From Escherichia coli (GTDB taxonomy: Bacteria; Pseudomonadota; Gammaproteobacteria; Enterobacterales; Enterobacteriaceae): 13,636 bases of DNA. The translations under genes and the position numbers were made by a program. The notes below the pieces were generated by a model that was not told the origin of the DNA, ran no database searches, and saw only the letters and a list, made by a program, of their open reading frames with translations. The first letter of the stretch is position 1. Each line of letters starts with the position of its first letter. The DNA is taken from NCBI RefSeq assembly GCF_003334315.1, contig NZ_QOWR01000080.1. One strand, written 5' to 3'. Below, piece by piece: positions 280 through 310 of this stretch.

Positions 280-310
280 AATTCTCCCGGTGACTATCAC
301 CGGGAGAATT
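280..310. repeat. Perfect 13-bp inverted repeat with 5-nt spacer (AATTCTCCCGGTG-ACTAT-CACCGGGAGAATT); operator or terminator-like hairpin, function unknown
   Basis: Directly visible palindrome in the noncoding stretch between the IS1 end and the first CDS. Confidence 0.6.

Follow-up and report, generated by a model that had tools for sequence, protein, structure and literature searches.

On balance, we favour reading the perfect inverted repeat at positions 280 to 310 of an Escherichia coli contig (NZ_QOWR01000080.1, assembly GCF_003334315.1) as the protective 3' UTR stem-loop, devoid of a U-tract, of a putatively Rho-terminated gene coding for a 317-aa protein, which an IS1 insertion would since have left orphaned. 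The window, as we call it below, is the whole stretch of DNA that was analysed, i.e., 13,636 nucleotides, and the features discussed are listed in Table 1. The repeat had originally been predicted to be either a regulator binding site for a prophage module or a hairpin terminating transcription that reads out of IS1. It is probably an ordinary transcript-level element of a known class; it is not an IS1 read-out terminator, and a regulator site is improbable.

Table 1. Features around the inverted repeat, in window coordinates.
Feature	Position	Strand	Remarks
IS1 copy, left end	1..204	-	insA 149 -> 3 on the minus strand; this insertion cut the upstream gene
317-aa orphan gene remnant, last 57 nt	205..261	+	TGA stop 259-261; gene intact in IS1-free relatives
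Hairpin left arm	280..293	+	AATTCTCCCGGTGA
Hairpin loop	294..296	+	CTA in the window; TAA or TAG in relatives
Hairpin right arm	297..310	+	TCACCGGGAGAATT
Most conserved intergenic block, TTCAGATATGTATTATTTCAGCACTATATCA, with motif TTTCAGNNCTATATYA	309..339	+	First 22 nt identical between lineages with different hairpins
C-rich, G-poor untranslated tract, candidate Rho-loading (rut-like) region	365..455	+	C/G 3.0
Promoter-like match TTCAGA-17-TATATT before DUF932	449..477	+	9/12 consensus positions; consensus match only
DUF932 Shine-Dalgarno AAGGAA	485-490	+	ATG at 497
DUF932 gene	497..1315	+	First gene of the DUF932-RadC-YeeU-CbtA-DUF4942 module

The repeat stands exactly at the reported position and reads AATTCTCCCGGTGA-CTA-TCACCGGGAGAATT. 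The palindrome, which had been described as perfect with arms of 13 bp and a spacer of 5 nt, is real; A293 also pairs with T297, however, which brings the perfect arms to 14 bp (280-293 / 297-310) and the loop down to 3 nt (CTA, 294-296). This is the longest perfect inverted repeat of the window, and it was rightly deemed too long for chance: by analytic calculation, about 4e-4 perfect repeats with 14-bp arms and a loop of 3-10 nt are expected in 13.6 kb, and the pattern occurred in none of 200 dinucleotide-preserving shuffles, even when three mismatches were allowed. The 31 nt fold as RNA at -22.4 kcal/mol on either strand (-17.6 kcal/mol for the 10-bp core of the stem), and the single-stranded DNA of 270-320 folds at -15.7 kcal/mol (z = -7.5), a value reached by 0 of 200 shuffles. 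The whole intergenic region does not fold significantly on the + or the minus strand (z about -1.8 to -1.9) and thus gives no support to a larger structured RNA or to a fold of the ssDNA-promoter type. Among small ORFs sought in 200-500, we found only a 25-aa ORF with a GTG start inside the stem and a 20-aa ORF on the minus strand, neither of them credible, and the covariance models of Rfam 15 gave no match at gathering thresholds, a more sensitive search returning chance-level matches only (E >= 0.13). Elsewhere in the window, a perfect 9-bp inverted repeat with a 6-nt loop (CAGGGCCCC / GGGGCCCTG, 7578-7601) lies between the minus-strand ORFs 6562-7542 and 7607-8821; it is probably the 3' hairpin of the upstream one of the two.

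The repeat does lie between IS1 and the DUF932 gene, as first described, the IS1 end being at 204 and the gene at 497-1315. The translation of 149 to 3 on the minus strand is the N-terminus of InsA, and the IS1 genes point away from the palindrome. Genomes without this IS1 align with the window from 205 onward only; by megablast, 217 of 5426 complete E. coli genomes have window positions 205-1400 without IS1. Carriers of the IS1-free locus include E. coli Nissle 1917, ATCC 25922, ABU 83972 and W. In one such relative (L001:3104-4057), the upstream gene is annotated as a hypothetical protein of 317 aa, and its end corresponds to window position 261. In the 217 IS1-free genomes, the stem begins 18 nt past the TGA (259-261) of this gene, and so the hairpin is older than the IS1 insertion; it is structurally part of the gene that IS1 cut. 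The distance from the end of the stem to the DUF932 start codon is 186 nt. The proposal that the hairpin stops transcription coming out of IS1 thus fails on three counts, namely the age of the hairpin, the direction in which insA is read, and the lack of a U-tract on either strand.

The family of the 317-aa protein is a small one, with only 10 clusters in 5.8 billion proteins and no match in Pfam, NCBIfam, PHROG or PADLOC. The gene belongs to an island whose order is a GTPase gene, a 261-aa protein, an AlpA-like HTH protein (minus strand), a YagK/YfjJ "inovirus Gp2" protein (minus strand), a gap of about 590 bp, the 317-aa gene and the hairpin, followed on its 3' side by DUF932, RadC, YeeU, CbtA and DUF4942; nanM and the fim genes adjoin the island. 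The gap, which lies outside the window (L001:2512-3103 in the IS1-free relative), is non-coding, with no annotated ORF, and separates the 317-aa gene from the divergent YagK/YfjJ (Gp2-like) gene; the arrangement is kept at all homologous loci, with 600-850 bp. Among homologues of the 317-aa protein (P0001-P0010), the AlpA-like / YagK_YfjJ pair adjoins the gene wherever the upstream flank is readable, and the gene downstream varies, being DUF932 or a GTPase. The closest complete genome, that of strain 13C1065T, is colinear with window positions 205-8668 at 99.99% identity. It has no IS1 at the place of window 1-204 and carries one (L033:4244-5013) in place of about 2.9 kb of the window (8669-11591), between the nanM and fimE sides; the two strains thus differ by IS1 placement and by an IS1-associated deletion.

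A 39-nt query centred on the palindrome, searched with a lax E-value, matched the same 217 of 5426 genomes, at one locus each (each record lists two "places", one for each strand of the palindrome). With exactly one locus per genome, the palindrome is not a dispersed repeat, and REP/BIME, ERIC and MITE elements were ruled out. REP elements of the malE-malF type are intercistronic stabilising palindromes with hundreds of dispersed copies and a shared consensus; like them, the 280-310 repeat is an intergenic hairpin that could shield upstream mRNA from 3' exonucleases and set the differential expression of its neighbours, whereas it is single-copy and confined to one island locus. Two other classes were rejected, namely an RNase III site, as a 14-bp stem would be too short, and a dif/Xer or att-like site, whose architecture does not fit 14-bp arms, a 3-bp spacer and a single locus. 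The conserved flank, scanned against metagenomes, matched 18 contigs, each of the window lineage, and a scan of viral contigs gave no locus; a scan of genome contigs with the alignment of the 317-aa family added only 2 further loci. All orthologous loci, in 217 genomes and 18 metagenome contigs, have the palindrome. A check suggested with the original prediction, a search for the same palindrome upstream of paralogous DUF932 genes, found it absent there: the upstream regions of yafZ, of yfjQ and of the UPEC, O157 island and F-plasmid copies have no similarity to the 280-310 region.

Within E. coli, variation at the hairpin is scarce. The arms are essentially fixed across the genomes and the 18 metagenome contigs, and the loop is CTA, TAA or TAG (variants were seen at the equivalents of 294-296 in L009, L036, L038 and L050). 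The rare single stem changes (A280T, G292A, C300G and C301T) are never compensated; two of them create a G·U pair, in one case on the + strand and in the other on the minus strand. C300G is carried by strain UTME13 and 3 metagenome contigs, and the TAG loop always comes together with this mismatch. As none of these changes is compensated, intra-species data cannot decide the question.

We thus turn to other lineages, the loci compared being all divergent members of the 317-aa protein family. In a sister lineage (lineage 2), the 317-aa protein is 83% identical to that of the window lineage, and the neighbours are 77% (AlpA-like), 85% (Gp2-like) and 90% (DUF932) identical. A hairpin stands there at the same place and in the same register, ACCTCCCTTTGTTA-TTA-TAACAGGGGGAGTT, yet 9 of its 28 arm positions differ. 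In an ungapped alignment anchored on the identical 3' flank, both partners differ in 4 of the 14 pairs (compensatory changes), 2 pairs go from C-G to U-G, and 1 is lost. Pairing in register holds for 96% of cells, versus 33-61% in slid registers, and the covariation observed, which rests essentially on one lineage split, was equalled in 0 of 500 shuffles. The 22 nt directly 3' of the hairpin (TTCAGATATGTATTATTTCAG) are identical in both lineages, and the rest of the spacer is about 70% identical. At the level of sequence comparison, it is thus the pairing rather than the sequence that is conserved between lineages. More distant homologues of the 317-aa protein (44-55% identity; Enterobacter, Serratia and metagenomes) each have an unrelated stem-loop about 5-30 nt past the stop. 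G·U pairs give the + strand RNA an advantage in stability of 0.8-11.9 kcal/mol over its minus-strand counterpart in 6 of 7 other lineages; the Serratia locus has the reversed bias. A pairing kept while the sequence is not, together with the + strand G·U bias, fits a structure selected in the sense RNA of the upstream gene. What stands of the original prediction is, thus, a hairpin that would act on transcripts, without the IS1 read-out role that had been attached to it.

One has to keep in mind that palindrome symmetry may also persist by template switching at the DNA level, without selection. The TAG loop is the reverse complement of CTA, and the three loops suggest a hairpin-mediated inversion of the loop followed by a point change; such DNA-level events would therefore happen at this hairpin. 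From there, one could propose that the palindrome is neutral, kept by template switching between its arms and without function in either the intact island or the window. The loop inversion signature speaks for this explanation, as does an E. coli diversity too low to show purifying selection on the arms (0 changes seen for 1.4 expected); nevertheless, it would have to account for independent, unrelated hairpins at the same post-stop place in every homologous lineage examined, and G·U pairs are not expected from arm correction at the DNA level. We consider it quite improbable.

The same comparison bears on the idea of a palindromic DNA operator, by which the DUF932 promoter, or one in the conserved block, would be under the control of a dimeric island regulator (the AlpA-like HTH protein, a 262-aa HTH protein or CopG). 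A perfect 14-bp dyad next to the most conserved non-coding block could indeed look like an operator, and this counts against the protective stem-loop. Several HTH/RHH regulators are encoded nearby, a TTCAGA hexamer overlaps the right edge of the hairpin, and a minus-strand TTGAAA-17-GATAAT (10/12) starts 6 nt from its left edge. Dyad symmetry, an intergenic location and an island encoding several such regulators are features shared with known dimeric HTH/RHH operators, but the arms of the 280-310 repeat are longer (14-bp arms and a 3-bp spacer exceed typical half-sites), the site is single, and neither its sequence nor its symmetry holds among relatives. Indeed, the sequence is replaced in lineage 2, where the AlpA-like protein is nevertheless 77% identical and the flank 100% identical; in other lineages, the dyads are imperfect as duplex DNA (G·T, bulges) but well paired as + strand RNA. 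There is no second site in the island or the rest of the genome, nor any cluster of half-sites in the window or the intact island, and about 140 nt separate the repeat from the DUF932 promoter-like site downstream (449-477), the only + strand consensus promoter match for this gene. On these grounds, we hold an operator, and with it the regulator site first proposed for the prophage module, to be improbable.

Weak promoter-like words abut the hairpin on both sides. The minus-strand TTGAAA-17-GATAAT, at 274-246, is the best sigma-70 match of the region; it points into the remnant of the 317-aa gene and, in the window, toward the IS1 insA gene, in sense orientation. Where the island is intact, this match would face the 3' end of the 317-aa gene in antisense orientation.

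As regards termination, the hairpin has the stable, GC-rich stem-loop of an intrinsic terminator (14 bp, -22.4 kcal/mol). A U-tract was sought 3' of the stem on both strands and was not found, the first 8 nt having only 2-4 U: the + strand tail is CAGAUAUG or AAUUCAGA, with 2 U in 8, and the minus-strand tail is UAAGUUUG or AAUUUAAG, with 3-4 U in 8. The consensus terminator scan does not call the 280-310 hairpin. The hairpin-plus-tail discriminant, whose formula reportedly goes back to d'Aubenton-Carafa and colleagues in 1990 and was used comparatively only, ranges from -20 to -42 for this hairpin and the homologous ones, versus about +38 for the terminators found before paralogous DUF932 genes. 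A canonical intrinsic terminator is thus rejected, on the lack of a U-tract on either strand, the negative discriminant and the lack of a scan call.

These terminators, canonical and with U-tracts, occur at several of the paralogous DUF932 loci, which carry their own hairpins (yafZ, yfjQ, O157 and UPEC). They resemble the 280-310 element in being GC-rich hairpins between an upstream gene and DUF932, but they have a U-tract (6 U in 8) and stand 30-45 nt before the DUF932 start, versus 2-4 U in 8 and 186 nt for the 280-310 hairpin, with which they have no sequence similarity. They were located at L022:1432-1471, L023:1432-1470 and L019:1421-1460 (for example, GGCCGCGTCTTCTCCGGGAGACGCGGCC then TTTTCGTTT). 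At 30-45 nt from the start codon, they leave no room for a promoter, so that these genes would be expressed by terminator read-through or antitermination.

One could still propose a weak or non-canonical intrinsic terminator acting as an insulator, where polymerase would partially stop at the hairpin in one or both directions and the upstream module would be set apart from the DUF932 operon. The strong GC-rich stem directly past a stop codon is in line with this, AAUU arises on either side from the outer A/T pairs, the minus-strand tail AAUUUAAGUUUG is somewhat richer in U, and the true terminators before paralogous DUF932 genes make termination at this boundary a recurrent theme. The tails, however, are as poor in U as stated above, the discriminant is far under that of the positive controls and the scan makes no call; moreover, all the homologous hairpins past the 317-aa gene are also without a U-tract, and no minus-strand gene runs toward the hairpin. 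We regard this explanation as unlikely, though still worth considering.

A class of elements with precisely this combination has been described. Dar and Sorek (2018; PMC6061677) reported that Rho-dependent E. coli transcripts end right after stable stem-loops without uridine-rich tails, with a mild enrichment of C over G downstream, and that these stem-loops protect the RNA from PNPase and RNase II. The 280-310 element shares with this class (PMC6061677) a stable stem-loop just past the coding region, a stem and an energy similar to those of terminators, the mild downstream excess of C over G, and the lack of both a U-rich tail and a notable upstream A-tract; at the level of sequence, it thus matches every feature of the class. 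It differs in that its stem is long and perfect (14 pairs) and in that its transcript is gone in the window. As for the composition downstream, C/G reaches 3.0 in 60-nt windows at 365-455, and the best 78-nt stretch ranks at the 98.7th percentile within the window. In the window lineage this excess is mild, and it is no specific mark of rut sites; the corresponding tract of lineage 2 has a C/G of 6-21, though its sequence is not conserved.

For the protective stem-loop, we propose the following scenario. In intact islands, transcription of the 317-aa gene would pass the stop codon (259-261) and, 18 nt further, the transcript would fold into the 14-bp hairpin of about -22 kcal/mol. As there is no U-tract, release of RNA polymerase would not be expected at this point; Rho would rather load downstream, on the untranslated C-rich, G-poor RNA of about 365-455, and terminate transcription there. 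Exonucleases working 3'-to-5' would then shorten the RNA until they reached the base of the hairpin; this barrier would stabilise the message and fix the stable 3' end of the mRNA near 311-313. By the same token, the hairpin would separate the upstream gene from the DUF932-RadC-YeeU-CbtA unit. In the window, where IS1 left only the last 57 nt of the gene, the hairpin would be a stranded relic. Among the observations that count against this model are the single stem-breaking variants persisting in some strains (C300G, G292A and A280T) and the opposite strand bias of the Serratia locus.

The block at 309-339, just past the hairpin, has a different distribution. Its motif TTTCAGNNCTATATYA is found exactly once in every homologous locus, and a near-identical TTCAGATATATATCA precedes the GTPase genes (ykfA, yfjP-like) of K-12-type islands and is also found in an O157 island; no comparable hairpin stands before it there. 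As the motif occurs elsewhere without the hairpin, it belongs to the downstream unit and the hairpin to the upstream gene, the two being merely adjacent here. At its 5' end, the downstream module probably has this block as its regulatory boundary, outside the hairpin, and the motif may be a promoter or an operator of that module. Consensus promoter scans around the block gave weak and inconsistent matches across lineages, so we make no promoter claim for it. More generally, the motif TTTCAG-NN-CTATAT(C/T)A is common to many CP4-like islands, upstream of GTPase genes or, in the window, of DUF932 (L019:437-452, L020:436-451, L021:435-450, L023:1227-1242, L013:2841-2856, L014:4037-4052 and L025:3528-3543). 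The K-12-type form TTCAGATATATATCA includes a 10-bp palindrome, GATATATATC, and the motif of the window lineage appears split by a 16-nt insertion: TTCAGATAT[GTATTATTTCAGCACT]ATATCAC. At two Enterobacter loci (L014:4055-4084 and L025:3546-3575), a second hairpin, CCGTGATAA...TTATCAC(A/T)GG, comes directly past the motif; it takes in the GGTG Shine-Dalgarno-like sequence of the GTPase gene that follows and could be a device of translational control.

The association of the hairpin with this motif also raises the question of a DNA hairpin used by the machinery of the island, for example as a nick or origin site of the YagK/YfjJ (inovirus Gp2-like) protein with a cleavage sequence ...CTATATTAC.... 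A divergent YagK_YfjJ / REP_ORF2-G2P gene is always found within about 1.6 kb of the hairpin and of the conserved motif, which follows the hairpin by 13-22 nt, and ATATTAC has what we take to be a resemblance to the nick-site cores of rolling-circle replicons. The window lineage, however, has ATATCAC and not ATATTAC, the same motif stands without a hairpin upstream of the GTPase genes of K-12-type islands, the strand-specific G·U pairing points to RNA, and we know of no evidence for rolling-circle replication of these islands. Such a site seems to us hardly credible.

At the scale of the island, one may also imagine that the hairpin and the block at 309-339 form a regulated checkpoint. In Pseudomonas aeruginosa, AlpA has been proven to be an antiterminator (PMC7969949, PMC9371919); by analogy, a polymerase modified by the AlpA-family protein of the island would read through the hairpin/Rho site here and at the terminators of the paralogous DUF932 genes by processive antitermination, the control module being composed of the AlpA-like HTH protein, the Gp2-like protein and the 317-aa gene. 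This is a speculative idea to which we give a very small chance of being right; were it true, expression of the cargo (DUF932-RadC-YeeU-CbtA) would be coupled to the activation of the island.

The palindrome is thus tied neither to IS1 nor to DUF932, but would be the 3' end structure of a gene that IS1 has deleted, and positions 205-310 should therefore be annotated as a gene remnant and its 3' UTR. If the model of a stabiliser of Rho-dependent transcripts is true, it would provide one clean covarying example for a class described genome-wide in K-12. Finally, the shared motif and the terminators preceding paralogous DUF932 genes may help explain how CP4-like islands control their DUF932, anti-restriction and toxin-antitoxin cargo.
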